64,000 bases of DNA from Gammaproteobacteria bacterium (GTDB lineage: Bacteria > Pseudomonadota > Gammaproteobacteria > Eutrophobiales > Eutrophobiaceae), in contig OZ251218.1 in the NCBI GenBank assembly GCA_965240365.1, positions 3,022,378 to 3,086,377 on the forward strand, given 5' to 3'. The position numbers and the translations under genes were made by a program. Numbering within the stretch: the first letter of the stretch is position 1; every line of letters begins with the position of its first letter. Below, piece after piece: positions 1-63,140 of the stretch. Below the pieces are notes generated by a model that did no database searches, was not told the origin of the DNA, and was given only the letters and a program-made list of their open reading frames with translations.

Positions 1-155
1 TGAATTATATAAAACACTGGATTCCGGCTTTCGCCTGCCTGCGGCAGGCAGGCTGGAATGATGAAATAGATGGGAATGCCGCCCGTTGCCATTGCACCGC
101 ACGCTTTCTGCATTCCCGCTTTCACGATAACAAGCGACCGCGTTAAAATACGGGC

Positions 156-4983: not shown

Positions 4984-5971
4984 TATACCTCCTTTGTTGT
5001 AATTCCAGTAAGTGTCCGGGTTCAATACCCAGGGTCATCTCATCTAAAATAAGGTGTCAGTTATCCTAGCCACGGTATCTTTAAGTATTGCTCATAATGC
5101 GCCTATTGCCCCCACCGTCATTTATGGACAGGAAGTCCTGTATGCGGCGACCTGCCTGCTGCAGGCAGGGAGGGCACGCCTACAAGGATGTACGCCTACA
5201 GGGACGTAGGTGGTAGAGCGGCGTCTGGAACAAGCCGCCGAGGTGGTAGAGCGGCGCCTGCCTGCAGCAGTCCGGATGAGATGGCCACCTCTTGTTGCGC
5301 GGCGTCTGAAGCGCCAAAATGAAGTTTTTACTTAACCTAAATGCACAAAAGAGGTGTCCGAGATGAAAGTGACTCTAATTGGTATTGATTTGGCAAAGAC
5401 TATTTTTCAGGTATGTGGAGTGAATCAGGTCGGCAAGCCGGTGTTTAACCGGACGATACGGCGTGCGGGTCTGTTGTCCTTTGTGAGCCGTTACCCGGAT
5501 TCGGTAGCCTGCCTGCAGCAGGCAGGTGGCGATGGAGGCGTGCGGGGGGTCGAATTACTGGGGACGTGAGTTGCAGAAGCGGGGCTATGAGGTGAAGCTG
5601 ATTCCGCCGCAGCATGTGAAGCCGTTTGTAAACCTGCCTGCAGCAGGCAGGGGGGAACAAGACCGACCGTCATGATGCTCTGGCGATTTGTGAGGCGGCC
5701 GGTCGTCCTGAGTTGCGGTGTGTTATGCCTCGCAGTGTTGAGCAGACTGACCGGCTGCTGGCGCACCGGCTGCGCCCTGCCTGCAGCAGGCAGGGAGCAG
5801 GCCGTAGGCGGGCGTACCCGGTTGGTGAATCAAATTCGGGGGTTGTTGCGGGAGTATGGCGTGGTGGCCTGCCTGCAGCAGGCAGGTGGCCCGTCGCTAT
5901 CTCGGCATGCCGTGGGCCGAGTGGCAGGCGCTGGATGCGCGTATTGCGGAGTTGGAGGAAGATACTAGTAA

Positions 5972-7063
5972 TTGCATAAGTATTCGCAGTGCATTATAAT
6001 TTGCTGCCATGAGCACAAGAATTGAATTACGTAATCAGAAACGCAAAGATGTTGTTGAAGCAATCGTTATCCGCCAAGAACCTGTTCATTTAGTTCGGCG
6101 GATATACAACCTGCCGGAACGCACGGTTTTCGACTGGCTGTCACGTTATCGGGCCGGCGGATGGGATGCGCTCAAGGAGGGCAAGCGTAGCGGCCGCCCC
6201 AGAAAGCTCAGCGCTGAGGACATGCAGTGGGTTTATAAGGCGGTGACAATGGGCAACCCGATGCACTATCAGTTTGATTTTTGTCTTTGGACTCTGGGCG
6301 TGTTAGGCACCCTGATCAAGCAAGCACGCGGTGTCAAGCTGAGCAAGAGCGCCATTAGTCGCTTATTGAGGCATCTGGGGTTGAGCGCGCAACGTCCGGT
6401 CTACAAGTCGTATAAGCAAGACCCGAAGCAGGTCAAGCGCTATCTTTCCAAGACGTTTCCTGAGGCCGTGGCACAAGCGAAGGCGATGGGCGCGCAACTG
6501 TTCTTTGTTGATGAGGCTTCGGTACGTAGTGATGCGCACCGGGGCGCCACCTGGGGCAAGCGAGGCGAGACACCGGTTATCAGAGACAGCGGTGGACGTT
6601 TTGGGCTTAATATGATGAGTGCCATTTCTCCACGGGGGGAGATGCGTTTCAGTTTCATTGCGGGAGGTATGAACTCAAGCCGGTTTATCCAGTTTCTAAA
6701 AAAGCTCCATAAGGATGCCGGCAAGCCCATTTTGGTCATCGTTGATAACGCCAAATATCACTACAGTAAGGAAACACGGCGCTTCCTTAAGCAACAAGAC
6801 GGCCAGATTTTGCTGACTTTCCTGCCAGCGTACTCACCGGAACTCAATCCTGATGAACAGGTTTGGAATCATGCCAAACACCAACTCAGTCAACGCCCTG
6901 TCTGGGATAAACACGATATGAAAAGGCACTTGTCAGCTATTTTGCATTCTCTTCAGAAACGCACGGGCTTGATCATGAGCTTCTTCAAAATGAAAAATAC
7001 GAAATATATCCTGGAAGTCTTCATATGAACTGCGATTATTTATGCAAGGATTAATATTAAGGC
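5972..7063 (+). mobile_element. IS630-family element nested in IS110 copy 1
   Basis: Imperfect terminal inverted repeats ...ATTGCATAAGTATTCGCAGT / ACTGCGATTATTTATGCAAGG...; inserted at a TA dinucleotide present once in uninterrupted IS110 copy 2. Confidence 0.6.
6009..7028 (+). CDS. IS630-family transposase
   Basis: 339 aa; HTH N-terminus and DDE region (FFVDEASV...VIVDNAKYH...YSPELNPDE). Confidence 0.85.
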   Translation: MSTRIELRNQKRKDVVEAIVIRQEPVHLVRRIYNLPERTVFDWLSRYRAGGWDALKEGKRSGRPRKLSAEDMQWVYKAVTMGNPMHYQFDFCLWTLGVLGTLIKQARGVKLSKSAISRLLRHLGLSAQRPVYKSYKQDPKQVKRYLSKTFPEAVAQAKAMGAQLFFVDEASVRSDAHRGATWGKRGETPVIRDSGGRFGLNMMSAISPRGEMRFSFIAGGMNSSRFIQFLKKLHKDAGKPILVIVDNAKYHYSKETRRFLKQQDGQILLTFLPAYSPELNPDEQVWNHAKHQLSQRPVWDKHDMKRHLSAILHSLQKRTGLIMSFFKMKNTKYILEVFI

Positions 7064-7410
7064 TCAGGTCAAGCAGGATGAGTCGGCGCGGCGTCTGGCG
7101 GGTATCAAGGGGGTGGGCCACTGATTGCCAGTGCGGCCGCCTGCCTGCAGCAGGCAGGCCACTATGCGGCCAATCTGGGACTGGTGCCCAGAGAGCACTC
7201 CAGTGGCGGCCGCCAACGGCTGGGAGGGATTACCAAACAGGGTAACCAGTATCTGCGCCGCCTGCTCGTCCAGGGGGCCTGGTCGGTCTTGCGCTATGCC
7301 GACCGCAGTGAAGACCGGCTGTCACGTTGGGCCAGACAGGTCACCTGCCTGCTGCAGGCAGGTGGCTCGCATCGGCAAGCATAAGGCGGCGGTGGCCGTG
7401 GCCAACAAGC

Positions 7411-7429
7411 CCTGCCTGCTGCAGGCAGG
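7411..7429. repeat. 19-bp hairpin copy present in IS110 copy 1 only
   Basis: copy1 CAAG-CCCTGCCTGCTGCAGGCAGG-TGGCCCGC vs copy2 CAAAC-TGGCCCGC (44296 region). Confidence 0.8.
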
Positions 7430-7567
7430 TGGCCCGCATCATCTGGTCAATGCTGTATCACGGCGCCGAGTACCGGCCGGCTTGAGACACGCGCACCGGC
7501 CCGTTTGAGGCAGAAGTAGAACGTACCCACCATAGGTTGCGATGAAGATATGAAGTAACAGCTTAGA

Positions 7568-7670
7568 CCTGCCTGCAGCAGGCAGGCCGGCCCCTGAAAC
7601 GCTGACTTACCTGCCTGCAGCAGGCAGGCCGGCCCCTGAAACGCTGACTTACCTGCCTGCAGCAGGCAGG
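7568..7670 (+). repeat. Tandem array (2.5 x 42 bp) of hairpin + 23-bp spacer inside IS110 right end
   Basis: Unit CCTGCCTGCAGCAGGCAGGCCGGCCCCTGAAACGCTGACTTA repeated at 7568, 7610, 7652(partial); copy 2 has a single unit. Confidence 0.7.
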
Positions 7671-7887
7671 CCCGACTGGGCTGAAAAGCACGAAGGCACG
7701 ATAGAGCGACAGGGGCGCGGTTCTCATTGAGGCCCGGGGACAATGATTCCCCAACACAGAGGCCGGATAGTCGTATGCAGTCTTATTTTACCGTTATTGA
7801 ATAATCAGCTTGCAAACTACGAGGTGTACATATAGGCCGAAATAACAGAGCGGATTGCCGGCAGTCTGTTTTTCATATACTCCCCGC

Positions 7888-22388: not shown

Positions 22389-23369
22389 TTGGGCTTCAAG
22401 ATGACAAGTTTAACCAGTTATTTCAATGATATAGATGATCCTCGTTCTGGCAACGCGCCGCGCCACAAGTTTTGCGATCTGATGACAATCCGTCTTTTGT
22501 GCGCCCTGTGTGGTGGGGAGACGGCGGTCGATATGGAAAATTTCGGCAATATGAAGGAGGATTTCTTACGGGAATTTCTCGAATTGCCCCATGGCGTACC
22601 TTGCCATGATGCGTATTCACAATTGTTCAGGTTGATGAAACCGGCGAGCTTCCAGACGTTTTTCGACAAGTTTCGCGCCGACTTCGCCGCCGGGCGTGGA
22701 GAGGAAGCAGCTATCGCGATTGACGGCAAAGAGATGCGGCGCCGCTTCGATAAGGCGATGGAACAGTCGAATCTAAACATGGTAACGGCCTTTGCGCATG
22801 GTGCGCGGCTGACCCTTGGGATCACTCAAAGCGCCAAGGGGGTGGTGAGATATTGGCCCCGCGTGAGTTGGTTGAGATGCTCGATATTCGTGGCATCACT
22901 ATCACCGCTGATGCGTTACATTGCCAGCGTGAGACCTGCGAATTGATCGTAGGGGAAGGGGGAGATTATTGCCTGCAACTCAAAGGCAACCAGGGCGATA
23001 TGCTGGCGGATGTACAGGCCTTTGTCAAAGATCAGAACATTGATTTCATTGATGAATATAAATCAACTGACGCGGATCATGGCCGTATCGAAGAGCGATC
23101 ATATCGCGTTTACGATGTCCCGAACTCTCTGGCCGAGAGGCACGATTGGCCGCACCTGCCTGCTGCAGGCAGGTCTGCAGGCCTTCGTTCAGGTCATCTC
23201 AAAACGTGAGGCAGGCGGCAAAACCAGCCACTCCGAGAGGCTGTATTTGATGTCAAAACGCCCCACAGCTCAACACGCCGCAACTCTAATCCGCGGCCAC
23301 TGGCAGATCGAAAACAGCTTGCACTGGTCGCTCGACGTTGTCATGGCCGATGACCATCACCGTGCCTGA
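22389..23369 (+). pseudogene. ISAs1-family transposase, frameshifted and hairpin-interrupted
   Basis: DIDDPRSGNAPRHKFCDLMTIRLLCALCGGE... (H-repeat/ISAs1 N-term) and ...HWQIENSLHWSLDVVMADD (C-term); frame change near 22850-22946 and 19-bp hairpin at 23155. Confidence 0.6.
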
Positions 23370-30456: not shown

Positions 30457-31387
30457 ACCAGCAAGAGCAACATTAGGATTGATTCCGAAAAATACCTGAT
30501 TAGGTGTTTTCATGCCAAGGCATTTTCGAGGTCGGTTATTTAATTTATCCATAGCCATTTTAATCTCCTGTTCAGTGATGGTGGTAAAGTCTCTGTTCCT
30601 GGGGAAGTATTGGCGTATCAGGCCGTTGGTATTTTCGTTGAGTCCGCGTTGCCAGGAGGCATAGGGGTGAGCGAAATAAAAGGTCGCATTGAGCGCTTTG
30701 GCAATGGCCTGATGGCGCGCAAACTCCCTGCCGTTGTCAGAAGTCAGGGTATGGACATTATCAGACAAGGGAGCAAGCTGTTGCAAAATAGCGGCCTTGA
30801 CCGTATCCGCTTCCTTGCTGGCGACCCTGGCAATCAACGTCAGGCGCGACTTACGCTCAGTCAGGGACACGAGGGCCTGTTTGTGCCCCTTGCCAATAAT
30901 CGTATCCAATTCCCAACCTGCCTGCTGCAGGCAGGTCACCCAATCGGGCACGTCTGTCGACGATGGCGGGTCGCTCATCAATGGAAACGCGGCCAGACCA
31001 CTGGCCACGGCGGCTAAAGTGACCGTAGCGCTTCCTGCGCCGCTTCTGGCAACGCAGGCGACGGTACAGGTCGCCGCCTTGCTGTTTGTCCCGCAGAATA
31101 TAGCGATAAATCCACTCATGGCTAATCCGAAGGCGCTTTTCCTGAGCCAGCCAGAGGCTGACCTGTTCCGGGCTCCAGTCCTCACGCAGCAAGGCTTCAA
31201 CCCAGTCCCAATGGCCGGGTTGAATGCGCACCTTAGCCTTTCCCTGCCGGCGGGTCACGGCCAGCCGTTCGGCCTGCTGCGGACGATAGCCGCAGAGGCC
31301 ACGGTTGCGCCTCAACTCACGGCTTATGGTGGATTTGTGAACCTCAAGGATACGGGCTGTCTCAGTTTGATTATGGCCTGCTTTCAT
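30454..31387 (-). pseudogene. IS30-family transposase (frameshifted)
   Basis: MKAGHNQTETARILEVHKSTISRELRRNRG... HTH, C-terminal ...LNENTNGLIRQYFPRNRDFTTITEQEIKMAMDKLNNRPRKCLGMKTPNQVF; two overlapping ORFs. Confidence 0.65.
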
Positions 31388-31558
31388 AAGGGCGCCTGCC
31401 TGCTGCAGGCAGGTAAATCGGGTATCGTTGCTCCTGGGTGAGCTGTGTGTATTGTCTCATCGATGCTTCTCATTCTTGCCAGAACAAAAAGCAGAGATAC
31501 TACCGCAGCTCGCCTCCTGTTCCGAGTTATGAGTTGCACTTACGAGTTGAATTCACGC
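30457..31558 (-). mobile_element. IS30-family element copy 1 inserted in paaK-like gene
   Basis: Imperfect terminal IRs GTGGATTCAACCAGCAAGAGCAAC... / ...GAGTTGCACTTACGAGTTGAATTCACG; transposase (30454..31387) frameshifted, 2 hairpin copies inside. Confidence 0.6.
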
Positions 31559-32410: not shown

Positions 32411-33760
32411 TCATTGCTGTCCCATTAACAGGGAATAAAAAGGCCTGATTCCACTGAGATTGATATAATGAGTTTGCTAAAAAACGCTGTATCAATAAGG
32501 AGAATCAGGCCGTGGCACATTGTAATACGATTTTTTCACAAATACTAAAGTTTGTTCCGAGACATGAATTTGAATCTCTGGCGAAGCGGCATCACTTGGG
32601 TCGGGCGTTCCGGAAAACTTCGCGTTGGCCTGCCTGCTGCAGGCAGGTCGCAATTTGTGTGGATGGCGATGGCACAATTGTCTGGCCGAATCAGTCTGCG
32701 CGATATTGTGGACAATCTTTCGGCACAGGCCCATCGTTTGTATCATCCAGGCAGTTCGAAGCCATCACATTCTACCTTGGCACGTCTTAACGAAGAGAAG
32801 CCCCATGCGCTTTATGAAGCCCTGTTTGGGAAGTTACTGAGTCGCTGTCAATGTGTTGCTCCGGGGTATAATTTTCGCTTCAAGAATCCGCTGTATTCAT
32901 TGAATGCGTCGATGATTGACCTGTGTCTCGCGGTATTTCCATGGGCGGATTTTCGAACGAGCAAAGGCGCCATTAAGCTGCATATTGGTTTAAACCATCG
33001 GGGTTATTTACCGGAATTTGTGACGATTACGGAAGGGAAAACGCACGACCTGCCTGCAGCAGGCAGGTAAAATGGTCGGTAGGACATTGCAATTTCCAAA
33101 GGGCAGTATTGTGGCAGTGGACCGCGGTTACAATTACTACAGCTGGTATAAGCAACTGAATGCTAAAGGTATCTTTTTCGTAACCCGCTTGAAGTCGAAT
33201 GCGAAGGTGCGTGTTGTTGCGCGCCGACCTGCCTGCTGCAGGCAAGTGTGTGGTCAAGCAGAGGAATGTGACGAGTGACCAGACGATCAAATTCACGGGA
33301 GTGCGTGCCCAAAAGAGGTGTCCGATTGGATTACGTCGAATCGGTTACCGGGAGCCAGTAACGGGCAAACGTTACGTGTTTCTGACGAACAATTTCAAGC
33401 TGTCGGCACAGACGATAGCGGATATATATAAATCACGCTGGCAGGTTGAATTGTTTTATAAATGGGCCTGCCTGCTGCAGGCAGGTCAAGCAAAATTTGA
33501 AGATCAAGGCGTTTATGGGCACGAGTAAGAATGCGGTGTTGACCCAGATATGGATTGCAATGTGTGTTTACTTGTTGCTGGCGTATTTGAAGTTTCAATC
33601 AAAGGTAACGAGAAGCTTGCAACAAATTCTGCGATTGCTACAACTGAATTTGTTCGAGAAACGCGATCTGACCGCCTTGCTTAACGGTGACCCACCCCAG
33701 ACACGCTGGGAAACTGATCGTCAAATAACACTGCTATGAAAGTTAATGGGACAGCAGTGA
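32411..33760 (+). mobile_element. IS4-family element
   Basis: 18-bp terminal IRs CATTGCTGTCCCATTAAC (32411) / GTTAATGGGACAGCAGTG (33743); transposase carries 4 hairpin insertions. Confidence 0.65.
32512..33739 (+). pseudogene. IS4-family DDE transposase broken by four 19-bp hairpin insertions
   Basis: ...VAVDRGYNYYSWYKQLNAKGIFFVTRLK...YKSRWQVELFYKW...GTSKNAVLTQIWIAMCVYLLL; hairpins at 32629, 33049, 33228, 33467 each shift the frame. Confidence 0.65.
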
Positions 33761-33871: not shown

Positions 33872-34748
33872 GGGCGTAGACCTATAAACAAGTAACAGTT
33901 AAAATGGCGGCAAGATAAAAAACTCAGGAGGTTTCAATGTCTCTAAATTTCTGGTTAACGAAAGAGCAGTTCAAAAAAATCCAACCATTGCTACCGAACA
34001 AGCCGCGTGGCGTTGCCCGCGTGTGCGATAGACAAGTCTTGTCAGGCATCATCTATTGTCTTCAGCGGGGATATAGGTGGAGTGATGTTCCCGAGGAATA
34101 CGGCCCGGCCAAGACGCTCTACAATCGCTACAGGCGCTGGTCTGAGGCGGGTGTGTTCGAACGCATATTCAAGGCTTTAGCAGGTGAGGGCGCAGACTTC
34201 AGCACGCTGATGATTGACACGAGCCACATCAAAACCCACCGGATTGCCGCCAATGGTGTAAAAAAAACAACAGTCAGGGGCGAGCCATCGGCAAGACCAG
34301 GGGTGGCTTGAATTCCAAACTGCATCTGGTGTGCGATGGTCAGGGCCGCCCTGTCCATCTGCACCTGACGGCGGGCAACCGGGCTGACCTGCCTGCAGCA
34401 GGCAGGTATTACCCAGGCCCGTCACTGCCTTGAGGGTCATGTGCGTAAGGGCTGCACCGTTATTGCCGACCGTGGATACGATGCCAATCATCCCTGCCTG
34501 CTGCAGGCAGGTGCGTAACTGGCTGCTCAAGGCCGAAGCAACAGCCTGCATCCCACCCCGCAAAAACCGTAAGGTGCAGTTCGAATACGACACCGAGCTC
34601 TATAAAACACGCAACATCATTGAGCGCATGTTCAACCGCATCAGGGACTGGCGCCAGTTGTCCCTTCAAACCTTCCGATGTCCCGAGACGTTCCTCGCTG
34701 CCGCACAACTCGCTGCTATTGTGATCTGGTTATTATGAGTCTACGCCC
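33872..34748 (+). mobile_element. IS5-family (IS427/IS1031-type) element, copy A of tandem dimer (877 bp)
   Basis: IRs GGGCGTAGAC / GTCTACGCCC; orfA 33937..34311 + A8 slippery run + orfB; carries two hairpin copies (34388, 34493). Confidence 0.65.
34493..34511. repeat. 19-bp hairpin copy present in IS5 copy A only
   Basis: copy A AATCAT-CCCTGCCTGCTGCAGGCAGG-TGCGTAACT vs copy B AATCACC-TGCGTAACT. Confidence 0.8.
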
Positions 34749-34750
34749 TA

Positions 34751-35608
34751 GGGCGTAGACCTATAAACGGGTAATAGGTAGAATGACTGTAAGATAAAAA
34801 ACTCAGGAGGTTTCAATGTCTTTAAATTTCTGGCTGACGGAAGAACAGTTCAAAAAAATCCAACCATTGCTACCGAACAAGCCGCGTGGCGTTGCCCGCG
34901 TGTGCGATAGACAAGTCTTGTCAGGCATCATCTATTGTCTTCAGCGGGGATATAGGTGGAGCGATGTTTCCGAGGAATACGGCCCGGCCAAGACGCTCTA
35001 CAATCGCTACAGGCGCTGGTCTGAGGCGGGTGTGTTCGAACGCATATTCAAGGCTTTAGCAGGTGAGGGCGCAGACCTCAGCACGCTGATGATTGACACA
35101 AGCCACATCAAAACCCACCGGATTGCCGCCAATGGTGTAAAAAAAACAACAGTCAGGGGCGAGCCATCGGCAAGACCAGGGGCGGCTTGAATTCCAAACT
35201 GCATCTGGTGTGTGATGGTCAGGGCCGCCCTGTCCATCTGCACCTGACGGCGGGCAACCGGGCTGACCTGCCTGCAGCAGGCAGGTATTACCCAGGCCCG
35301 TCACTGCCTTGAGGGTCATGTTCGTAAGGGCTGCACCGTTATTGCCGACCGCGGATACGATGCCAATCACCTGCGTAACTGGTTACTCAAAGTCAAAGCA
35401 ACAGCCTGCATCCCACCCCGCAAAAACCGCAAAGTGCAGTTCGAATATGACACCGAGCTCTATAAAACACGCAACATCATTGAGCGCATGTTCAACCGCA
35501 TCAGGGACTGGCGCCAGTTGTCCCTTCGAACTTTCCGATGTCCCGAGACGTTCCTCGCTGCCGCACAACTCGCTGCTGTTGTGATCTGGTTATTATGAGT
35601 CTACGCCC
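34751..35608 (+). mobile_element. IS5-family (IS427/IS1031-type) element, copy B of tandem dimer (858 bp)
   Basis: Same IRs; separated from copy A by TA; 19 bp shorter than copy A because it lacks the second hairpin. Confidence 0.65.
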
Positions 35609-36483: not shown

Positions 36484-36694
36484 TTTTGCGTCATGGACAA
36501 AATCACGCCGCTTCCATTTCGCTACCGTTGCGGGGTTCAGGTCTGCCTGCTGCAGGCAGGTTATAGCGCTTCGCCAATTTGGCTATGCTCTCTTGACTAT
36601 TTTGTATTGCTCGACGCACCACCTCAGTCGTTGTGGCGCTGCCGTGTAGTATTTGGCCCATAGCTCCTCCTTTGTTGGTATAGCAGAATAACTT

Positions 36695-42018: not shown

Positions 42019-42500
42019 GTGGATTCAACCAGCAAGTGCAACATTAGGATTGATTCGGAAGCTCTGAATAAATCCATCCTGGACTTACCTGCCTGCAGCA
42101 GGCAGAGCTTCAAAATCAATGACTTACGTCATTAATTTTGGCGGTACGTCCCTGTGCCGCAGGAAGCTCTGATTCAATCAGAGCTTCCGTTCCGAAAAAT
42201 ACCTGATTAGGTGTTTTCATGTCAAGGCATTTTCGGGGTCGGTTATTTAATTTATCCATAGCCATTTTAATCTCCTGTTCAGTGATGGTGGTAAAGTCTC
42301 TGTCCTTGGAGAAGTATTGGCGTATCAGGTCGTTGGTATTTTCGTTGAGTCCACCTGCCTGCAGCAGGCAGGCGTTGCCAGGAGGCATAGGCCTGCCCGC
42401 TGCAGGTGGGGGTGGGCGAAATAAAAGGTCGCATTGAGTGCTTTGGCAATGGTCTGATGGCGCGCAAACTCCCTCATGGACCCCGATGTGCTGGCCAAAC
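42019..42500 (-). pseudogene. IS30-family copy 2, 3' fragment with a 136-bp MITE-like insert
   Basis: IR GTGGATTCAACCAGCAAGTGCAAC; insert 42057..42192 bounded by GGAAGCTCTGA direct/inverted repeats; two extra hairpins at 42354 and 42392 absent from copy 1. Confidence 0.55.
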
Positions 42501-42789: not shown

Positions 42790-43268
42790 TCCTAAATTCT
42801 TACGTGAATTCAACTCGTAAGTGCAACTCATGACTCGGAACAGGAGGCGAGCTGCGTTAGTATCTCTGTTTTTTGTTCTGGCAAGAATGAGAAGCATTGA
42901 TGAGACAAAATACACACAGCTCACCCAGAGGAGCAACGATACCCGATTTACCTGCCTGCAGCAGGCAGGCGCCCTTATGAAAGCAGGTCATAATCAAACT
43001 GAGATAGCCCGTATTCTTGAGGTTCACAAATCCACTATAAGCCGTGAGTTGAGGCGCAACCGTGGCCTGCGCGGCTATCGTCCGCAGCAGACTGAACAGT
43101 TGGCCGTGACCCACCTGCCTGCATTGCCAGAAGCGGCGCAGGAAGCGCTGCGGTCCTTTAGCCGCCGTGGCCAGTGGTCTGGCCGCGTTTCCATTGATGA
43201 GCGACCCGCCATCGTCGACAGGCGTGCCCGATTGGGCGACCTGCCTGCAGCAGGCAGGATGAGATGGT
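42790..43268 (+). pseudogene. IS30-family copy 2, 5' fragment (opposite orientation), truncated by IS110
   Basis: MKAGHNQTEIARILEVHKSTISRELRRNRGLRGYRPQQTEQLAVT...; ~190-bp internal deletion replaced by half-hairpin (43113..43123); ends at hairpin 43250..43268 where IS110 copy 2 begins. Confidence 0.55.
43250..43268. repeat. 19-bp hairpin abutting IS110 copy 2 left end
   Basis: CCTGCCTGCAGCAGGCAGG|ATGAGATGG; the equivalent hairpin (mutated arm) abuts copy 1 at 5257..5275. Confidence 0.8.
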
Positions 43269-44665
43269 CACCTCTTGTTGCGCGGCGTCTGAAGCGCCAA
43301 AATGAAGTTTTTACTTAACCTAAATGCACAAAAGAGGTGTCCGAGATGAAAGTGACTCTAATTGGTATTGATTTGGCAAAGACTATTTTTCAAGTGTGTG
43401 GAGTGAATCAGGCCGGCAAGCCGGTGTTTAACCGGACGATACGGCGTGCGGGGGTTCGAATTACTGGGGACGTGAGTTGCAGAAGCGGGGCTATGAGGTG
43501 AAGCTGATTCCGCCGCAGCATGTGAAGCCGTTTGTAAACCTGCCTGCAGCAGGCAGGGGGGAACAAGACCGACCGTCATGATGCCCTGGCGATTTGTGAG
43601 GCGGCCGGTCGTCCTGAGTTGCGGTGTGTTATGCCTCGCAGTGTTGAGCAGACCGACCGGCTGCTGGCGCACCGGCTGCGCCCTGCCTGCAGCAGGCAGG
43701 GAGCAGGCCGTAGGCGGGCGTACCCGGTTGGTGAATCAAATGCGGGGGTTATTGCAGGAGTATGGCGTGGTGTTGCCCAGGGGAAGGGGGCGCTGGAAAC
43801 GGGCGCTGCCGGCCTTGCTGGAAGACGGTGAGCATGGCTTGACAGTTACCTGCCTGCAGCAGGCAGGGGGGCCGTCGCTATCTCGGCATGCCGTGGGCCG
43901 AGTGGCAGGCGCTGGATGTGCGTATTGCGGAGTTGGAGGAGGATATTAAGGCCTAGGTCAAGCAGGATGAGTCGGCGCGGCGTCTGACGGGCATCAAGGG
44001 GGTGGGGCCACTGATTGCCAGTGCGGCCGCCTGCCTGCAGCAGGCAGGCCACTATGCGGCCAATCTGGGACTGGTGCCCAGAGAGCACTCCAGTGGCGGC
44101 CGCCAACGGCTGGGAGGGATTACCAAACAGGGTAACCAGTATCTGCGCCGCCTGCTCGTCCAGGGGGCCTGGTCGGTCTTGCGCTATGCCGACCGCAGTG
44201 AAGACCGGCTGTCACGTTGAGCCAGACAGGTCACCTGCCTGCAGCAGGCAGGTGGCTCGCATCGGCAAGCATAAGGCGGCGGTGGCCGTGGCCAACAAAC
44301 TGGCCCGCATCATCTGGTCAATGCTGTATCACGGCGCCGAGTACCGGCCGGCCTGAGACACGCTCAGGCCCGTTTGAGACAGGAGTAGAACGTACCCACC
44401 ATAGGTTGCGATGAAGATATGAAGTAACATCTTAGACCTGCCTGCAGCAGGCAGGCCGGCCCCTGAAACGCTGGCTTACCCGACTGCAGCAGGCTTACCC
44501 GACTGGGCTGAAAAGCCCGAAGGCACGATAGAGCGACAGGGGCGCGGTTCTCATTGAGGCCCGGGGACAATGATTCCCCAACACAGAGGCCGGATAGTCG
44601 TATGCAGTCTTATTTTACCGTTACTGAATAATCAGCTTGCAAACTACGAGGTGTACATATAGGTC
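43269..44665 (+). mobile_element. IS110-family element copy 2 (transposase 43346..44340 disrupted)
   Basis: Left end ATGAGATGGTCACC directly after hairpin; same architecture as copy 1 but without IS630, with a different set of hairpins/deletions. Confidence 0.6.
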
Positions 44666-49559: not shown

Positions 49560-50340
49560 TAACCGATTTGGCATGTATTGCTTGATTTTGTTGCGTCATT
49601 TATCCAACGCCGTCATTCCGGCCCATCGCAGAGGCAGGCGAAAGTCGGAATTCCAACCGGCACGGTAGGGCAGGCAGAGCCGGAATCTATTTCACATCCC
49701 GGCAGACCTTTCCTGGATTCCAGCTTTCGCTGGAATGACGACGGGGGCAGGAATGAAAAGACAGCAGGGAGTCAAAAGGAGCGGGAATAACAGAGGCCAG
49801 AATAACTTTGAAGGTCAACGGGCCGTATCTATCACCTACGTCGTCATTCCGGCGAAGGCCGGAATCCAGTGGCTTATGTCATACATTCCCGCTTAAGCGG
49901 GAATGACAATCAAATGCGTTATTTCAACCGGCACGGTAAAGCAGACAGAGCCAGAATCCATATCACATCCCGGCAGACCTTTCCTGGATTCCGGCCTTCG
50001 CCGGAATGACGACGAGGGAGTAAATAACAGAGGGGGTCTGAAAGATACCCGGCTACGCCCCTGCCGTCATTCCGGCCGGCACGGTAAGGCAGGCAGAGCC
50101 GGATTGCATTTCGCCCCCCGGCCCCGCCCTCCTGGATTCCAGTTTCCGCTGGAATGACTACGGGGGTGGAATGGAAAAGAGGGCAGAGGACCAAAAGGAG
50201 CGGCAGTGACAGAAGCCGGAATAACATTGAAGACCAACGAGCCGTATCTATCACCTACGTCGTCATTCCAGCGAAAGCTGGAATCCAGTGGTTTATATAC
50301 TACATTCCCGCGCAGCGGGAATGACAACAGAGGAGGGCGG
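49560..50340. repeat. Composite intergenic repeat array (two ~419-bp higher-order units)
   Basis: Hairpins of three kinds: ATTCCCGC-N4-GCGGGAAT, TCATTCC(A/G)GCGAAAGC(T/C)GGAATCCAGTGG, TGGATTCCAGCTTTCGCTGGAATGACG. Confidence 0.7.
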
Positions 50341-55199: not shown

Positions 55200-56110
55200 C
55201 CTATTGCCTACGCCGGAATGACGACGAAGGAGTAAATAACAGAGGGGGGTCTGAAAGATACCTGGCTATGCCCCCACCGTCATTCCAGCGAAAGCTCGCC
55301 TGCATGGATGCAGGTGGTAGAGCGGCGTCAGGAACAGGCCGCCGAGGAATCCAGTGGTTTATACAATCCATTCCCGCAAAGCCCTGCCTGCAGCAGGCAG
55401 GGGGAATGCCATTTTGACTGGTTTGGTACACGCAGACAGGGCCGGATTCTATTTCGCTCCCCGGCATCGCCTCCCTGGATTCCAGCTTTCGCTGGAATGA
55501 CGTCAGGGGCGGGAATGAAAGAGATGGAAGAGTACCTAAAAGGAGTGGCAAGAAACAAAAAGCCTCGTCATTCCGGCCTTCGCCGGAATGACGACGAGGG
55601 AATAAACAACAGAGGGGAGTCTGAAAGATACTTGGCTACGCCCCCACCGTCATTCCAGCGAAAGCTGGAATCCAGTGGTTTATACAATCCATTCCCGCAA
55701 AGCGGGAATGCCATTGTGGTTGGTTTGGTACAGGCAGACAGGGCCAGATTCTATTTCGCTCCCCGGCATCGCCTTCCTGGATTCCAGCTTTCGCTGGAAT
55801 GACGTCAGGGGCGGGAATGAAAGAGATGGAAGAGTACCTGAAAGGAGTGGCAAGAAACAAAAAGCCTCGTCATTCCGACCTTCGCCGGGCGGCTACGGGC
55901 ATCCTGCCCTCACGCCACATACAGGACATCCTGTCCATAAATGACGACGAGGGAGTAAACAACAGAGGGGGGTCTGAAAGATACCTGGCTACGCCTCCAC
56001 CGTCATTCCAGCGAAAGCTCGCCTGCATGGATGCAGGTGGTAGAGCGGCGTCAGGAACAGGCCGCCGAGGAATCCAGTGGTTTATACAATCCATTCCCGC
56101 AAGGCGGGAA
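55200..56110. repeat. Composite intergenic repeat array between fhcB and autotransporter
   Basis: Same unit families as 49560..50340, ~300-bp higher-order periodicity; one ATTCCC..GGGAAT hairpin carries the 19-bp palindrome in its loop (55383..55401). Confidence 0.7.
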
Positions 56111-56115
56111 TGACA

Positions 56116-59100
56116 TCAAAACTCCCACATAAACCCAACTTGCGCATGCACCCCCAGATCCGCCTTCGAGCCGTAGCGGGCCTCAATATTGGCGCTGAAG
56201 GTCAGCTTCAGGGCCGGCACGACATAGTCGAAGCCCGCCCCCATAAAGCCCGTCACGGCCTTGCCGCCGCCGGCCCTGAACTTGACATCCTGGCCGTCAA
56301 GCAGGCCGCGCACCGTGTCCCCGCTAAGGCGGGCGCGGCCCTCGGCTCCGACCCGGAGTTCGCCGCTAAGCTGGCCCCCGTGAGCGTTCGCGGGAAAGCT
56401 CAGCGGCAAACCCAGGCTGGCGCGCGCGATGCCGATGTGTAAAGCCCGCTCGTTTATCCTGAACGCGGCGGCGCCCTCGGCCCGGCCTTCCGGCTGATAG
56501 GCATAGGCTTCTGTAAACAGGCCCAGATAACGCAGCCGCAACGCCGGGCGCAGCGTCACGCCATTGAAATCAAAGCGGGTGGCAAGCCCCACTTCAGGGT
56601 TGATAAAGAGGCCCGAGTAATCGGTCTGTATGCGTTCGGTCCCGTCTATAGCCCGGTTATTGGCCTGTTGCCACGTGGAGCGGAACTTGCTCCGGCCGAG
56701 CATCAGGGCCACGTTCAGGTCAAGGTTATCCCGGCGGGTGGCGGCCCAGACGCCCGTGAATATGCTCTCGCTGTCTTCATCGCGGGCCGGGCCGCTGACC
56801 TCGACCACGCTGCGGGCCGCGCCCAGAAAGAACCCGGCCCCGGCCTCCGCGCCAATGGTCGAGACGCCCGCCAGACCGCCCCCGTAACGATGCCGGGCGG
56901 GCGGCATGAAGCGCCCGTCCCGTTTGAACCGGTGCAGACCGCCAAAGGGCCTGGCCCAGAGCGCCCTGCGCTTGTCCCCGTCCTCGCCTTGCCCCGGGCT
57001 GTTGATATGACTTTGCCCCTGATGAGTGAGCGCCTCCGAGACCGCGCCCGTCCACTGACTCAGAGCCGCATCGCCGAGCGTGTGGATGGTCGGGTCCAGG
57101 ATGGCCACGGTCGTTTCCGCCTTCCCGAACTGGTTTGAGCGGCGGGTGCCGCGGAGCACGGGCCGGGGGCCGGCTTCAATGGCAAAGCGCGTGGGTTCGG
57201 TCCCGGCCGGGGCGTCGTTGTCGGTCAAGGTAAACTGGGCCGCGCGCGCGGGGATGTATTGCAGGGTATCGCCCGCGCCGTCCCAGTGGATATTCCCTAT
57301 CAGGGTGAAGTTATCGCGCAGGATCAGGCGATCCCGGCCCTGGCCTCTGAGCATCAGGGCGTCGCCCGCCGTGCCATCCAGCGAGCGCAATATACCGGCG
57401 TGATCAATCGTCGTGTCGCCGGCCCGCGCGCGCTCGACCAGGATGCCGGTCTTGCCCTCGATCGTGCCGCCTTTTTTATTAAGCAGCAGCTCAATGGCCC
57501 CGCGCGCGAAAATGCCGCGCGCGGTCTTGCCACCCGCGATGCGGCCGCTGTTCTCAAGCCGCCCGCCGGCGCCGAGCGAGAGGCCCGCGCCGGTCTTGCC
57601 CTCGATCGTGCCGCTGTTAGTCAGCGTGTTGATCGCGCCGCGCGCCAGAATGCCGTTGTCTCCGCCCGCGATCCTGCCGGTATTATCAAGGTTGCCGATA
57701 GAGGCGGCCATGACGCCGTTGCCTTTGGCAGATTCAATCGTGCCGCTATTGTCAAGCCGGGTAATCGGCCCGGCCGCGAGGCCCGCGCCCGTGCCGCCCG
57801 CGATGCGGCCGCTGTTTTCCGCGAGGCGGATGGTGTTTGGGCCATAATCCGCCCCGGCCGCGCCGCCTTCGATCGTGCCCGTGTTTTTCAGCGTGGCGAG
57901 GCCGGAGACCATGCCGCTGAGTTTGATGCCTTCATTGGCCTCGCCGCGGATCGTGCCGCTGTTGTCAAGATTCAGGATGTTGGCGGCCTCAATGCCCACG
58001 GCGCCGCTGGTAATGGCCGCGCGGCGGCCGTTATTTTGCAGGCGGGTGATCAGCCCGGCCTTGAGCGCCGCGCCGCGGCCGCCGCGGATTGTGCCGCTGT
58101 TGTTCAGGGTGTTGACCGCGCCGCGCGCCAGAATGCCGTTGTCCCCGCCCGCGATCCTGCCGGCGTTGTCGAGGCGGCCGATGGAGGCGGCCATGACGCC
58201 GTTGCCTGCCGTAGATTCAATCGTGCCGCCCGCCTTGTTGTCGAGCCGGGTAATCGGCCCGGCCGCGAGGCCCGCGTCCGCGCCGCCCGCGATGCGGCCG
58301 CTGTTTTCGGCCAGGAGGATGGCGTTTTGGCCATAATCCGCCCCGATCGTGCCGCCCTCGATCGTGCCCGTGTTTTCCAGCGTGACAGGGTCGGGGGCCG
58401 TGCTGCTGAGTCTGATGCCTTCACTGGCCGCGGCGCCCCTGGGGATGGCCGCGCGCCGGCCGTTATTCGGCCCGGCCTTGAGCGCCGCGCCGCGGCCGCC
58501 GCGGATTGTGCCGCTGTTGTTCAGGGTGTTGACCGCGCCGCGCGCCAGAATGCCGTTGTCTCCGCCTTCGATCCTGCCGGCGTTGTCGAGGCGGCCGATG
58601 GAGGCGGCCATGAGGCCGTTGCCCGCGGTGGATTCAATCGTGCCGCCCGCCTTGTTGTCGAGCCGGGTAATCGGCCCGGCCGTGAGGCCCGCGCCCGTGC
58701 CGCCCGTGATGCGGCCGTTGTTTTCGGCGAGGCGGATGGCGTTTTGGCCATAATCCGCCCCGGCCGCGCCGCCCTTGATCGTGCCTGTATTTTTCAGCGT
58801 GACGGGGCCGGGGGCCGTGCCGCTGAGCTTGATGCCGTTGTCTCCGCCTTCGATCCTGCCGGCGTTGTCGAGGCGGCCGATAGAGGCGGCCATGACGCCA
58901 TTGCTTGCGGTGGATTCAATCGTACCGCCCGCCTTGTTGTCGAGTCGGGTAATCGGCCCGGCCGTGAGGCCCGCGCCCGTGCCGCCCGCGATGCGGCCGC
59001 TGTTTTCGGCGAGGCGGATGGCGTTTTGGCCATAATCTGCCCCGATCGTGCCGCCCTCGATCGTGCCCGTGTTTTCCAGCGTGACGGGGCCGGGGGCCGT

Positions 59101-61554
59101 GCCGTTGAGCTTGATGCCTGTACTGGCCGCGCCGCGGATTGTGCCGCTGTTGTTCAGGGTGTTGACCGCGCCGCGCGCCAGAATGCCGTTGTCTCCGCCT
59201 TCGATCCTGCCGGCGTTGTCGAGGCGGCCGATAGAGGCGGCCATGAGGCCGTTGCCTGCCGTGGATTCAATCGTGCCGCCCGCCTTGTTGTCGAGCCGGG
59301 TAATCGGCCCGGCCGTGAGGCCCGCGCCCGTGCCGCCCGCGATGCGGCCGCTGTTTTCCGCGAGGCGGATGGTGTTTTGGCCATAATCCACCCCGGCCGC
59401 GCCGCCCTTGATCGTGCCCGTGTTTTTCAGCGTGACGGGGCCGGGGGCCGTGCCGCTGAGCTTGATGCCTTCATTGGCCGTGCCGCGGATCGTGGCGCTG
59501 TTGTCCAGGCGGCCGATGGAACCGGCCTGGATGCCGCGCTTCCTGCCCGCGATTTCGCCGCGGCCGGTGTTGGCCAGGGTTCTGATATGGCCCGAGACAT
59601 TCAGCCCCTCACTGTTTGTTCCCGACCCTTCGCTTTCGATCCTGCCGCTGTTGTTCAGGTCGCCAATCGACGCGGCCCTGACGCCGCTCTGAACGCCCTT
59701 AATGACGCCTTTGTTTGTCAGTTCGTCGATTGCGCCATCCGCGCGGACGCCGTCCGGGCCGCTCCCGGAGATCTCGCCATCGTTCTCAAGCCTGCCGATC
59801 CGGTTTTCGGCATGAACGCCAAGATTGCCCGAGATCGTGCCGTCTTTTTTATTGATCAGGGTATTGATAGTCCTGGCCTTAACCCCCCCATTGCCGCCCG
59901 AGATCTCACCGTTGTTCTCCAGGCCGCCGAGTTCAGACCCGCCGATCCGGTCTTCGGCATGAACGCCAAAATTGCGCGAACCCGAGATCGTGCCGTCTTT
60001 TTTATTGATCAAGGTATTGATAATGCTGGCCTTAACCCCGCTATCGCCGCCCGAGATCTCACCGCTGTTCTCCAAAACCCCGTTATCACCATTTGAGATT
60101 TTACCGCTCTCCAGGCGGCCGAATGCAAGCGTGCCGATCCGGTCTTCGGCGTGAACGCCAAAATTGCGCGAACCCGAGATCGTGCCGCCTTTTTTATTGT
60201 TTAAGGTGGTGATAACCTTCGCCTTAACCCCGCCATCGCCACCCGAGATTTCGCCGCTGTTCTCCAGCCGGCCGAGCGTTTCTGTTACCGTGACGCCCCT
60301 GTTGCTGGTGCTCTCCCCGGCGGCGGCGCCCTGAATTTTACCGCCCGCCTTGTTCTTCAGCAGGTCGATGGCGTTTGCGAATACGCCGGTTTGGCCTTCA
60401 ATCTGGCCGCTGTTGTCCAGCTCGGCGATGGAGGAAGCGGCATGGAGGCCGTGAGCGCCGCCCTTGATCGTGCCGCTGTTCGTCAGTTTTTCGCTGGCTA
60501 TGGTCCCAGAAGTGAGGCGGATGCCGGCATGACCGGCGCCGCCCTCGATCCGGCCGCTTTTTTTATTGCTCAGTTCCGTGCCGATAGAACCCGCCCTGAT
60601 GCCGTCACGCGGGCCCTGAATGAGGCCAGTTGCCTCATTGGTCAATGTGTCGATGGCGCCGCTGCCTATCAGGCCGAAGCCCTTCCCTGCCTCAGGGTCG
60701 CCGGTATTGGTTCGGCCGAGTATTTTACCGGCGTTGCTAAGCGTGCCGATGCTGCCGAAAACGATGCCGTTTCCGGATGTCGATGTAATTTCGGCGTCCT
60801 TTTCGTTGCTCAGCTTGTCGATTTTGCCACCCGTGGAGATGGCCGCCTCAATATTGCCGATTAGCTCGCCCTGGTTGGTCAATGTGCCGATGGAGGCGGC
60901 TTTAACGCCGAAAGTAATTCCCGTGATGGTCGCAGTCGCTGTCCCGGTCGCTTCGTTGCTCAGGTTTTCAATACGGCCGCGGGCCAGAATAGCGCGTTCG
61001 GATTCAATCTTGCCGCTGTTGGTCAGCGTGGTTATACTGCCTGTAGTGTTAATACCGAAATCAGTAGCGTCAATCGTGCCGCTGTTTTTCACCTCGCTAG
61101 ATGGAATTGGCGAAAAAACCGACAGTCCCTTTCAAAGTGCCCCTGTTGTCCAGTCCAGATATTGCTGGCGTTCCCAGAGACAGCAATTATTTTCTCTCAC
61201 GCCAAAGACGGGGCCTCCAACTGCAGTAATTGTAACGCCGGGCAACACGATCAGGGTTTCGTTATCTTTGAGAGTATTTATTTGCCTTCCGTCTTTATCT
61301 ATCGTGATATTTTTACGCTCCACCGCTAACGGGGACAGAGGCAGCGCCAGCAGCAGCGCCAGAGACAGCGGGCAGAGACAGCGCCCGGCGGCGCGCCCGG
61401 GCCGGCCATGCCCCGGCCTCTGTCCCCCTGCCTGTCGTCGGATTTGAATCAATAGGGCCTGCAACATCATCTCTCTCGCATATGGCCGGAAGGCGTTATG
61501 TGGATAGTTTGTATCGGTCAAGCGCCACGGTCCGCGCTTCATTTCCGGGCGCAA
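56116..61554 (-). pseudogene. Giant autotransporter adhesin (1812 codons) with in-frame TGA near N-terminus
   Basis: C-terminal autotransporter beta-barrel ending ...AQVGFMWEF; passenger with >=6 near-identical ~115-135-aa tandem repeats (...LDNKAGGTIESTAGNG(L/V)MAASIGRLDNAGRIEGGDNG...); signal-peptide-bearing N-part (61135..61554) in same frame, separated only by TGA at 61132..61134. Confidence 0.75.
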
Positions 61555-61589: not shown

Positions 61590-61940
61590 TTTGACCCCCG
61601 CCGCCCGTTGCTACGCCACCCCCACCGTTACGTTGCCTGGTTTGGTGTTGGCGGGTAAAAAGAACGTCATTCTAACTGGCACGGTGAGGCAGAAAGCGCC
61701 GGGTTCCGTTTCACACCCCGGCGCCGCCCTCCTGGATTCCAGCTTTCGCTGGAATGACGACGGGGCGGAAATGAAAAAACGGAAGAGTATCTAAAAGGGG
61801 TGGCATTGAACAAAAAGCCCCGTCATTCCAGCGAAAGATGGAATCCAGTGGTTTATACAATCCATTCCCGCAAAGCGGGAATGCCATTTTTCCCATGAGT
61901 CCCTCCGTCCTGTCATACCTGCCTGCTTACAACAGGCAGG
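61590..61940. repeat. Intergenic repeat array
   Basis: TCATTCCAGCGAAAGATGGAATCCAGTGG, ATTCCCGCAAAGCGGGAAT and a long-loop hairpin variant CCTGCCTGC-TTACAA-CAGGCAGG. Confidence 0.6.
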
Positions 61941-61970
61941 CGCAAGCGGGCATAACAATTCAGGCTTGCT

Positions 61971-62783: not shown

Positions 62784-62789
62784 GTCGTG

Positions 62790-63140
62790 GGTTTCAGGAT
62801 TTGGTTGATGACGGGTATTTTATTCTGTCTGGCACAGTACAGACAGACAGAACCGGGTTTCATTCCAATCCCCGGCATAGCCTTCCTGGATTCCAGCTTT
62901 CGCTGGACGGCTACGGGCATCCTGCCCTCTCGCCGCATACAGGACATCCTGTCCATAAATGACGACGGGGGTAGCAGGTGTATTCCGGCAATCTTCAATG
63001 TTATTGTCAACCGACCCGTTGTTCCAGCCCGCCGATGTTCTCACCAACCCGTCATTCCGGCGAAGGCCGGAATCCAGTGGTTTTTTTCAATACATTCCCG
63101 CGTAAGCCCTGCCTGCAGCAGGCAGGGGGAATGACAATTA
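62790..63140. repeat. Intergenic repeat array
   Basis: ATTCCCGCGTAAG[19-bp palindrome]GGGAATGAC at 63090..63135 plus GGAATCCAGTGG hairpins. Confidence 0.6.

Follow-up and report, generated by a model that had tools for sequence, protein, structure and literature searches.

The locus described here raises the question of whether a 19-bp palindrome that interrupts several hairpin repeats is an element that moves and, if it does, what determines the sites that it enters. The window that we analysed is a stretch of 64,000 nucleotides (64 kb) from a Gammaproteobacteria bacterium of the Eutrophobiaceae (assembly GCA_965240365.1, contig OZ251218.1, positions 3,022,378 to 3,086,377). The insert, which we named E, has the sequence CCTGCCTGC-N-GCAGGCAGG, that is, 9 nt, any single base and the reverse complement of those 9 nt, so that palindromic arms surround one variable centre base. 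A sequence-only reading of the window had pointed to three hairpin repeats that carry this insert, had placed it at the apex of each stem–loop and had proposed that it targets extruded hairpins or loops of single-stranded DNA (ssDNA) rather than a linear motif. All three repeats were found at the places named by that reading, each with an exact 19-bp difference and an unambiguous junction. The composite at 55370-55407 consists of ATTCCCGCAAAGC, the insert CCTGCCTGCAGCAGGCAGG and GGGAAT; the composite at 63094-63132 of ATTCCCGCGTAAGC, E (the same 19-mer as at 55383) and GGGAAT; and the composite at 21-59 of ATTCCGGCTTTCG, the insert CCTGCCTGCGGCAGGCAGG and CTGGAAT. The uninterrupted version of the 55383 host unit, ATTCCCGCAAAGCGGGAAT, exists as had been claimed (55691-55709) and occurs again at 61864-61882, and empty paralogues of the host at 21-59, ATTCCAGCTTTCGCTGGAAT, lie at 49717, 55479, 55781 and 61736. 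E is a genuine insertion and not a variant loop. We tentatively favour the reading that E is a non-autonomous micro-element, a single 19-nt hairpin that would be kept only in dispensable DNA and would depend on a mover acting in trans, which copies or relocates it seamlessly by a single-strand mechanism.

When folded alone as DNA, E forms a triloop on an 8-bp stem (-8 kcal/mol). A census of the window that allowed up to 3 mismatches detected 38 copies, against 0.06 expected from shuffled sequences, and 32 of the 38 were perfect. The centre base was A in 25 copies, T in 12 and G in 1. With palindromic arms, the A and T centres represent two orientations of one element. Three copies were located in hairpin repeats and approximately 30 in DNA derived from insertion sequences (IS) of the IS110, IS30, IS4, IS5, ISAs1 and IS481 families, with up to 9 sites within one transposase gene. 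No E was found in the ordinary genes of the window (∼45 kb, for example uvrC, ligA and the formate dehydrogenase subunits). The sole matches in an Rfam scan of the window were two tRNA genes (3323-3395 and 3461-3531), with none for E.

The in silico deletion of E resulted in long open reading frames (ORFs), namely an IS30 frame of 325 aa after removal of two copies and an IS4 frame of 399 aa after removal of four, and it also restored segments of IS5, ISAs1-like, IS481-like and IS110 elements. All restored frames were transposases according to Pfam. The restored IS4 protein was 94% identical, over 99% of the length, to intact 383-aa transposases (loci L115, L116 and L118 from the ENA metagenomes ERZ25067561 and ERZ25067570), in which all four IS4 sites were empty. 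Six IS110 sites were empty in an intact 337-aa copy (locus L119), the IS110 site at 7411 was empty in the second copy of that element in the window, and the IS5 site at 34493 was empty in the neighbouring copy 2. Filled and empty sites differed by exactly +19 bp, with neither duplication nor loss of the target, apart from three exceptions linked to deletions: 5868, where 74 bp are missing, the paired site 7140/44030, where E replaces ∼40 bp, and L119:2289, where 114 bp are missing. The target-site duplication expected of MITEs (transposable elements of miniature size with inverted repeats) and DDE transposition was not seen in any of at least 16 filled/empty pairs, and approximately 15 of 18 testable sites had not lost even one base. 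The same was observed in other phyla, where 28 of 31 empty sites recovered with blastn-short matched the removal of exactly 19 nt. The recovered empty sites ruled out that E is really 20-21 nt long; variants of 18, 20 and 21 nt essentially never fit. As ordinary genes contain no E, its removal from mRNA or its translational bypass is disfavoured.

The distribution of E extends far beyond the window. With one genome taken per species, the W-centred 19-mer was present at no fewer than 106 loci, whereas about 4 were calculated for 596 Gb, and the S-centred form (C or G in the centre) was present at at least 120 metagenome loci. Identical E occurred in about 16 phyla among the matches listed. These included isolates of Algoriphagus, Belliella, Robertkochia, Pedobacter, Arenibacter, Perlabentimonas and Rosettibacter, and metagenome-assembled genomes (MAGs) of Acidobacteriota, Armatimonadota, Bacteroidota, Bipolaricaulota, Calditrichota, Chlorobiota, Chloroflexota, Desulfobacterota, Elusimicrobiota, Ignavibacteriota, Latescibacterota, Nitrospirota, Omnitrophota, Planctomycetota, Proteobacteria, Thermotogota and a candidate phyla radiation (CPR) lineage. 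In these other genomes ∼90% of the copies were intergenic, and at 236 sites elsewhere the only credible genes interrupted were transposases of the IS1380-like, IS1182, IS4/5 and IS256 kinds and one tyrosine integrase. In many phyla, unrelated sequences have received this same insert, and its copies persist only in dispensable DNA: hairpins of the repetitive extragenic palindromic (REP) type, other intergenic sequence and the genes of mobile elements. Judged from these sequence comparisons, E is probably mobile. A phage carrier was considered and rejected, as only 7 viral contigs contained E, all at intergenic sites.

That E is an artefact (an adapter or linker, or an assembly error), or that it has no mobility and spreads only by host duplication, is extremely improbable. 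E is a perfect GC-rich palindrome containing CTGCAG and many of its matches are in MAGs, as could be expected of an artefact, but it is also present in isolates and in assemblies from differing sequencing technologies and pipelines (SPAdes, MEGAHIT, Velvet, SOAPdenovo, Canu and Flye-type). Its flanks are colinear and not chimeric, identical E stands in flanks that are unrelated or ∼20% diverged, both filled and empty alleles were found, and decayed copies exist. In a relative with a 98%-identical LigA (ENA ERZ25067561) the copies are mostly decayed and lie in REP-rich spacers, which speaks against an artefact and suggests that E has long been present in the lineage.

To describe where E enters hairpins, we folded the host repeats of the window. 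They formed 9-bp stems with loops of 3-4 nt, and the hosts ATTCCNGC-loop-GCNGGAAT fit the CGTC-1 type, in which a stem of 8-9 bp starts with AT, the loop has 4 nt, the head is (C)GTC and the tail is CCA(G). CGTC-1 REPs (dRS3 in Neisseria) have been described as having a stem of 8-9 bp from AT, a 4-nt loop, a CGTC or GTC head and a CCA tail; CGTC REPs are alike across phyla and have no known transposase, and some REP families are nested within other palindromes (Di Nocera 2013, PMC3733652). E shares with these CGTC-tagged REPs the likeness across phyla and the lack of a known transposase; here, however, the REPs are the targets and not the insert, and their sequence is unrelated to E. The window contains 18 empty and 3 filled CGTC-type repeats. 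Folding did not place E at the loop apex, as had first been read, but 1-2 nt into the host's 3′ arm, at the shoulder between loop and stem: between the second and third base of the arm at 55383 and 63108, and between the first and second at 34. The copies at 55383 and 63108 are apparently independent events at the same relative position, because their flanks are ∼20% diverged or unrelated while E is identical. This repeated use of one position in diverged repeat copies was seen both in the window and in an Ignavibacteriota genome (L022), where hairpins of this kind hold two more E copies, one base deeper in the 3′ arm. E was found within hairpins of other phyla at L013, L022 (twice), L041, L062, L065, L072 and L082. 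By our estimate, REP-type CGTC hairpins make up ∼400 of ∼9,000 nt of non-IS intergenic DNA in the window, yet they hold 3 of the 5 non-IS copies of E.

The CGTC-type hairpins themselves form mosaic arrays at 49700-50330, 55200-56115 and 61730-63135, often as pairs ∼19 nt apart. The arrays sit within repeated units of ∼300-370 bp and resemble the NIME/dRS3 arrays of Neisseria.

In its pure form, the proposal of the sequence-only reading makes structure everything, with E integrating specifically into loops of extruded hairpins or cruciforms irrespective of their sequence. For the structural test, empty sites were rebuilt by deleting E and compared with random control positions. With exact stems and small offsets, the sites of the window looked like random ones, whereas the sites of other genomes had a stem of at least 6 bp in 9% of cases compared with 1.8% of controls. 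Minimum-free-energy folds with stems of at least 5 bp hardly distinguished E sites from controls, and empty sites inside IS genes folded no better than random positions. When we required a strong hairpin (stem of at least 8 bp with at most 1 mismatch, junction within the loop ±4 nt), such hairpins were present at 4 of 31 junctions in the window (2.1% in controls), at 12 of 114 W-centred loci (1.5%) and at 6 of 118 S-centred loci (1.9%). The enrichment was therefore 3-7 fold, yet it covers only 5-13% of the sites and leaves 87-95% without a strong hairpin. The distance from junction to loop centre was bimodal (approximately -6 and +3 nt), which corresponds to the upper stem and not the apex, and of 58 hairpins near a junction, 24 lay within 7.5 nt, where ∼12 were expected. 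Part of the enrichment may mirror the survival of E in hairpin-rich intergenic DNA, because the controls were mostly coding DNA. Of the proposal that E targets hairpins or ssDNA loops, the use of hairpin repeats above chance has stood; the idea of a general rule has not. When insertion positions were tabulated over all copies, most lay away from loop apices, the outcome that the sequence-only reading had itself said would weaken the structural-target idea. The filling of 3 of 21 REP hairpins of the window at the same shoulder position, its recurrence in other phyla and the 3-7 fold enrichment still speak for structural targeting, but the many sites that lack a stem of at least 8 bp, the random-like folding of the empty sites in IS genes, the junctions in the upper stem and the single-base flank preferences described below speak against it. 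As the sole rule structural targeting is largely refuted, and we consider this explanation unlikely.

The absence of any linear motif, which had been part of the same proposal, did not hold either. The base 5′ of E was almost never T and the base 3′ almost never A (2-4%). To examine polarity, each copy was oriented so that its centre base is a purine. In this orientation the 5′ neighbour was A in 19 of 26 unique sites of the window. In other genomes the 3′ neighbour on the purine-centre strand was C in 79 of 118 W-centred and 85 of 121 S-centred sites, while the mirror position was G in only 45 of 118 and 22 of 121, respectively. Hence E is polar notwithstanding its palindromic arms, since the centre base is linked to one flank, and this polarity points to a strand-specific process. 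The commonest context of C/G-centred E (metagenome loci L120-L239) was C-E(G)-C, often ..ATC-E-C.., in short tandem or REP-like repeats. A fixed target of four or five nucleotides 5′ of E, as palindrome-associated transposable elements (PATEs) have, was not found at the sites of the window or of other genomes; nor was a GTAG or CGTC tag at the foot of the E hairpin, where the flanks are variable in both sets.

The centre base differed between paralogous sites in two cases, 7344 (T) versus 44234 (A) and 30917 versus L119:2147. Both sites have A on the left and T on the right, flanks with which either orientation obeys the rule of the window, and no flip was seen at asymmetric sites; the flips may reflect re-insertion at hot spots or inversion of the palindrome centre. 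Copying of the centre base from the flank fits the copy at 34 and several L107 copies but fails at sites flanked by C and G or by G and C and in other genomes, and was rejected. At position -2 from the junction a transition relative to the empty allele was present in 4 of 16 comparisons (5508, 7411, 34493 and 43849). These substitutions are suggestive only, because all four are at synonymous third-codon positions and the background divergence is ∼4%.

The large share of E copies in IS DNA could also mean that a host or selfish system deliberately puts E into transposase genes, the insertions in hairpin repeats being side effects. This agrees with the ∼30 of 38 window copies in six IS families and the up to 9 sites per gene, with the interrupted genes of other phyla, which all encode transposases or the integrase, and with a density of E in IS DNA above that in other non-coding DNA. 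Against such directed silencing, ∼90% of the copies in other genomes are intergenic, intact E-free IS630 and IS1182-like elements coexist with E in the window, the affected IS families have no common motif, and purifying selection in ordinary genes yields the same pattern. We regard it as quite improbable.

E is also where an IS110-family element inserts. Three copies of this element (window 5257-7836, window 43240-44663 and L119 2395-3880) adjoin the right side of E, or of an E-like 19-mer, at three independent left junctions of one form, E followed directly by ATGAGATGG, while the DNA to the left of E is unrelated among the three. They share the right end ...CATATAGG (also given as ...GTGTACATATAGG), and a GG core is common to the end of E and the end of the element. 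The element has the Pfam domains DEDD_Tnp_IS110 and Transposase_20 and an intact 337-aa homologue in L119. As in the IS110 family generally, it has neither inverted terminal repeats nor target duplication, and it uses a specific repeated palindrome with a shared core. The left flank of copy 1 joined to the right flank of copy 2 gives a mosaic-repeat site; in L107:8552 this site is filled by a solo E, whereas at ∼55335 in the window it is empty. A Shewanella homologue, 61% identical to the element, has the same ends without E. The ORF of the intact L119 copy also lacks E, whereas both window copies are full of E and of deletions.

Within copy 1 lies an intact IS630-family element (5962-7053, with a 339-aa DDE_3 transposase); presumably it is the youngest layer of this dead element, because it contains no E.

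Copies of E recombine with each other, giving rise to deletions and tandem arrays. An internal E in the 3′ region of the IS110 element is present once in L119 (3597-3615), twice in copy 2 (44437-44497, the second decayed) and three times in copy 1 (7568-7670), where the array has a period of 42 bp made up of E and the 23-bp spacer CCGGCCCCTGAAACGCTGACTTA. The spacer is ancestral IS sequence, because the Shewanella homologue has the same one, and the differences in copy number of E plus spacer indicate unequal recombination between E copies. The deletions at 5868, 7140/44030 and L119:2289 fit such E-by-E recombination.

The close association with IS110 raises the alternative that its bridge recombinase creates or spreads E, as a by-product or as a dedicated site. 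The three IS110 copies that abut E at their left ends share the GG core and each carry an internal E, and the densest clusters of E are in and around IS110. It is established, however, that recombination in this family is an exchange of double-stranded circles and that a 19-bp insert cannot be delivered in this way. Many E loci have no IS110 nearby, and neither the Shewanella homologue nor the ORF of the intact L119 copy contains E. This origin is very improbable.

The deletions bear also on the main rival of the favoured reading, a filler made in break repair. Here E would be built at double-strand breaks from a 9-nt tail, (CCTG)2C, on both 3′ ends and one untemplated base, usually a purine, the breaks arising at nuclease-cut hairpins and in mobile DNA under attack by defence nucleases. 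The architecture of 9 nt, one base and the reverse complement would follow, as would the absence of target duplication, the copies located exactly at deletions of 40-114 bp, the clustering of sites at hairpin shoulders and in IS DNA, and a polarity that follows the purine-centre strand. On the other side, the ∼15 of 18 loss-free junctions are unusual for break repair, the arm length of E never varies, and no bacterial enzyme is known to add a fixed 9-mer. The deletions are explained equally well by recombination between E copies, of which the tandem arrays are direct evidence. We consider a break-repair origin improbable.

Under the favoured reading, in which E is a hairpin moved in trans, the mover would be an enzyme of the HUH/Y1 kind that recognises hairpins in single-stranded DNA, comparable to RAYT or the TnpA of IS200/IS605. 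It would cut at the foot of the E hairpin and reseal the donor, in a seamless 'peel and paste'. Integration would take place into transiently single-stranded DNA, which would account for the excess of E in the frayed upper stem or loop of extrudable hairpins, and action on one strand would account for the link between centre base and flank. Selection would be the main cause of the concentration in transposase genes, because a 19-nt frameshift is lethal in ordinary genes and neutral or useful in IS copies. The enzymes of IS200/IS605 and RAYT act on ssDNA hairpins and excise seamlessly, without generating a duplication; as a monomer, RAYT cuts a single REP hairpin on both of its sides. Mechanisms of the DDE, serine and IS110 types are excluded, on established knowledge of these families, because a duplex of 19 bp is unable to form a circle and duplications are not found. 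The most economical model, we infer, would be one in which an HUH/Y1-type enzyme handles a hairpin intermediate of single-stranded DNA.

Several observations weigh against this reading. First, a partner gene did not emerge. No protein family was recurrently near E when 1,111 ORFs within 2.5 kb in 106 loci were clustered, the clusters being generic only (type IX secretion system (T9SS) tail proteins, IF-2 and cyclophilin), and the ORFs between paired E copies were unremarkable. A tblastn search of the window and 118 loci with approximate Y1/RAYT consensus queries detected no RAYT gene flanked by E (a REPtron). Its one match, at L021 921-1475 in an Algoriphagus MAG, is a RAYT-like Y1 gene flanked by direct copies of its own, different hairpin, the upstream copy of which carries E in its loop; similarly, an IS200-type Y1_Tnp gene in L119 has its own hairpins, unrelated to E. 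Secondly, HUH transposons need two asymmetric ends and a target of 4-5 nt, whereas E is one symmetric hairpin, and REPs of the RAYT type carry a GTAG tag that E lacks. The flank preferences are of single bases only and differ between the genome of the window and the others. Finally, the density of E in IS DNA is ∼3-6 times that in other non-coding DNA of the window, and selection alone may fall short of explaining this excess; two or three copies of E are located at deletions, in keeping also with an origin in break repair.

Among published repeats, the nearest analogue of E as far as their description goes is provided by the small dispersed repeats SDR1-8, which are recounted in later papers as 21-27 nt long, confined to Nostocaceae and judged to be mobile, SDR5 sitting between the third and fourth base of the HIP1 palindrome (Elhai et al. 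2008, via PMC4390886, PMC5861425 and PMC3116915). In these accounts they are, like E, very short, dispersed, precisely inserted and without an associated gene. Compared by description only, E differs in its spread over ∼16 phyla, its invariant arms, its length of 19 nt, its near-perfect palindrome and its frequency in transposase ORFs. The precise insertion by which such repeats are recognised, with filled and empty sites and no duplication, was found for E, and its 19 nt lie just below the published range.

With REP sequences and the REPINs associated with RAYT, E has in common that it is a short, GC-rich, high-copy hairpin presumed to move as an ssDNA hairpin, and a mostly extragenic location is to some degree a further likeness. 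REPs are short imperfect palindromes of 20-40 bp, in high copy and extragenic; E has 19 bp and 38 copies in 64 kb, but ∼30 of them are within IS DNA. E differs further in lacking the GTAG or CGTC tag, a flanking RAYT gene and REPIN dimers: no inverted dimers of fixed spacing in the style of REPINs or BIMEs were found in the window, where E occurs as singletons at irregular spacing, with the 42-bp tandem array as the only array. REP sequences are lineage-specific and vertically inherited, whereas E is the same across phyla. REPs are also targets of IS110-family elements, as E is. IS1397/ISKpn1, the IS110-family IS621, ISPa11 and ISPpu9/10 provide a precedent for insertion in the loop region of palindromic repeats, and the IS110 element of the window inserts beside E in the manner of such REP-targeting elements; these are, unlike E, full-size and encode their own enzyme.

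The 'peel-and-paste' system of IS200/IS605 and its PATEs resembles E in that no duplication is made; the known system reseals the donor seamlessly, depends on hairpins and is strand-specific. E shows the absence of duplication and the seamless junction that characterise PATEs. However, the elements of this system have two different subterminal hairpins with guides, measure at least ∼80 nt and enter DNA 3′ of a fixed target of 4-5 nt, and the whole of E is one 19-nt hairpin. Rickettsia palindromic elements and the mitochondrial GC clusters or byp elements are likewise palindromic inserts within genes, but they are in frame or translationally bypassed and occur in functional genes, whereas E causes frameshifts and is absent from ordinary genes. 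E thus behaves like an SDR or a REP, and falls outside the REP–RAYT, PATE and MITE classes. The 19-mer was not found in the literature searched, in which only work on REPs, SDRs and HIP1 surfaced; the RepRanger paper does not contain E.

Table 1. Copies of E, their hosts and the IS elements that contain them (window coordinates)
Feature	Position	Strand	Basis or comparison
E centre G, in CGTC-type REP hairpin (host 21-59)	34..52	.	Folded; empty paralogues 55479, 49717, 55781, 61736
E upstream of IS110 copy 1, in intergenic REP-mosaic DNA	5151..5169	.	
Degenerate E (2 mismatches), abuts left end of IS110 copy 1, IS landing site	5257..5275	.	
IS110-family element copy 1, dead, with E copies and nested intact IS630 (5962-7053)	5276..7836	+	
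E in IS110 copy 1 transposase ORF	5508..5526	.	
E in IS110 copy 1 ORF, precise	5633..5651	.	Intact L119
E in IS110 copy 1 ORF, precise	5776..5794	.	
E in IS110 copy 1 ORF, at 74-bp deletion junction	5868..5886	.	
E in IS110 copy 1 ORF, replaces ∼40 bp	7140..7158	.	
E in IS110 copy 1 ORF, centre T	7344..7362	.	Copy 2 counterpart has centre A
E in IS110 copy 1 ORF	7411..7429	.	Site empty in copy 2
E, IS110 3′ non-coding region, 42-bp tandem array unit 1	7568..7586	.	
E, 42-bp tandem array unit 2	7610..7628	.	
E, 42-bp tandem array unit 3	7652..7670	.	
E in DDE (ISAs1-like) transposase fragment	23155..23173	.	Frame restoration, Pfam
E in IS30 transposase (325 aa after excision)	30917..30935	.	Frame restoration, Pfam
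E in IS30 transposase	31395..31413	.	Frame restoration, Pfam
IS4-family element, four E inserts	32412..33760	+	
E in IS4 transposase	32629..32647	.	Site empty in L115/L116/L118
E in IS4 transposase	33049..33067	.	Empty in intact copies
E (1 mismatch) in IS4 transposase	33228..33246	.	Empty in intact copies
E in IS4 transposase	33467..33485	.	Empty in intact copies
E in IS5 copy 1	34388..34406	.	Shared with copy 2
E in IS5 copy 1	34493..34511	.	Empty in copy 2
E in IS5 copy 2	35267..35285	.	
E (1 mismatch), N-terminal part of IS481-like transposase	36542..36560	.	Frame restoration, Pfam
E (1 mismatch), short inverted-repeat-bounded insert beside IS30 remnant	42088..42106	.	
E in IS30 remnant	42354..42372	.	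Same site filled in L119:1839
E-like 19-mer, doubtful (3 mismatches), possibly normal IS30 sequence	42392..42410	.	
E in IS30 remnant	42951..42969	.	Same site as 31395
E at junction of IS30 remnant and IS110 copy 2, IS landing site	43240..43258	.	
IS110-family element copy 2, dead	43259..44663	+	
E in IS110 copy 2 ORF	43539..43557	.	
E in IS110 copy 2 ORF	43682..43700	.	
E in IS110 copy 2 ORF	43849..43867	.	Comparison with L119
E in IS110 copy 2 ORF, replaces ∼40 bp	44030..44048	.	
E in IS110 copy 2 ORF	44234..44252	.	
E in IS110 copy 2 3′ non-coding region	44437..44455	.	
E centre A, in REP hairpin (host 55370-55407)	55383..55401	.	Census, fold
Empty paralogue of the 55370-55407 hairpin, ATTCCCGCAAAGCGGGAAT	55691..55709	.	
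Doubtful or decayed E (3 mismatches), REP-rich intergenic DNA	61922..61940	.	
E centre A, in REP hairpin (host 63094-63132)	63108..63126	.	Census, fold

Three further features of the window were recorded. Intact transposase genes without E are present at 14112-15461 (IS1182-like) and 15545-16642 (IS630-like). An insert of ∼150 bp at 42030-42185, bounded by inverted repeats GGAAGCTCTGA... and absent from the L119 counterpart, carries the E-like sequence at 42088 and may be a small MITE. The ORF at 56116-61092 on the minus strand (1,658 aa) has no Pfam match and its antisense frame is internally repetitive; it may encode a large repetitive surface protein.

It is possible, although we put this forward still more tentatively than the micro-element itself, that E represents an undescribed 'nano-transposon'. 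It would then be the smallest known mobile DNA (19 nt), cross-phylum and with invariant arms, seamlessly inserted and perhaps excised by a hairpin-specific enzyme, and its main visible effects would be the knock-out, possibly reversible, of transposase genes and the provision of landing pads for the bridge-RNA recombinases of IS110 elements. If E moves, the size limit of mobile DNA drops to one 19-nt hairpin, and the existence of an enzyme able to recognise this one hairpin across at least 16 phyla is implied. How REP- and SDR-like repeats spread has been a question since the 1980s, and E makes it tractable through its invariant sequence, its many filled and empty sites and its cultured hosts. 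For annotation, clustered pseudogenes labelled 'fragmented transposase' find their explanation in E, and taking out 19 nt in silico repairs them. An activity that inserts and excises a hairpin seamlessly, with programmable size, would be of interest for genome engineering. For the bacteria that carry it, E is a natural frameshift cassette that inactivates IS elements of many families and seeds deletions and tandem arrays.

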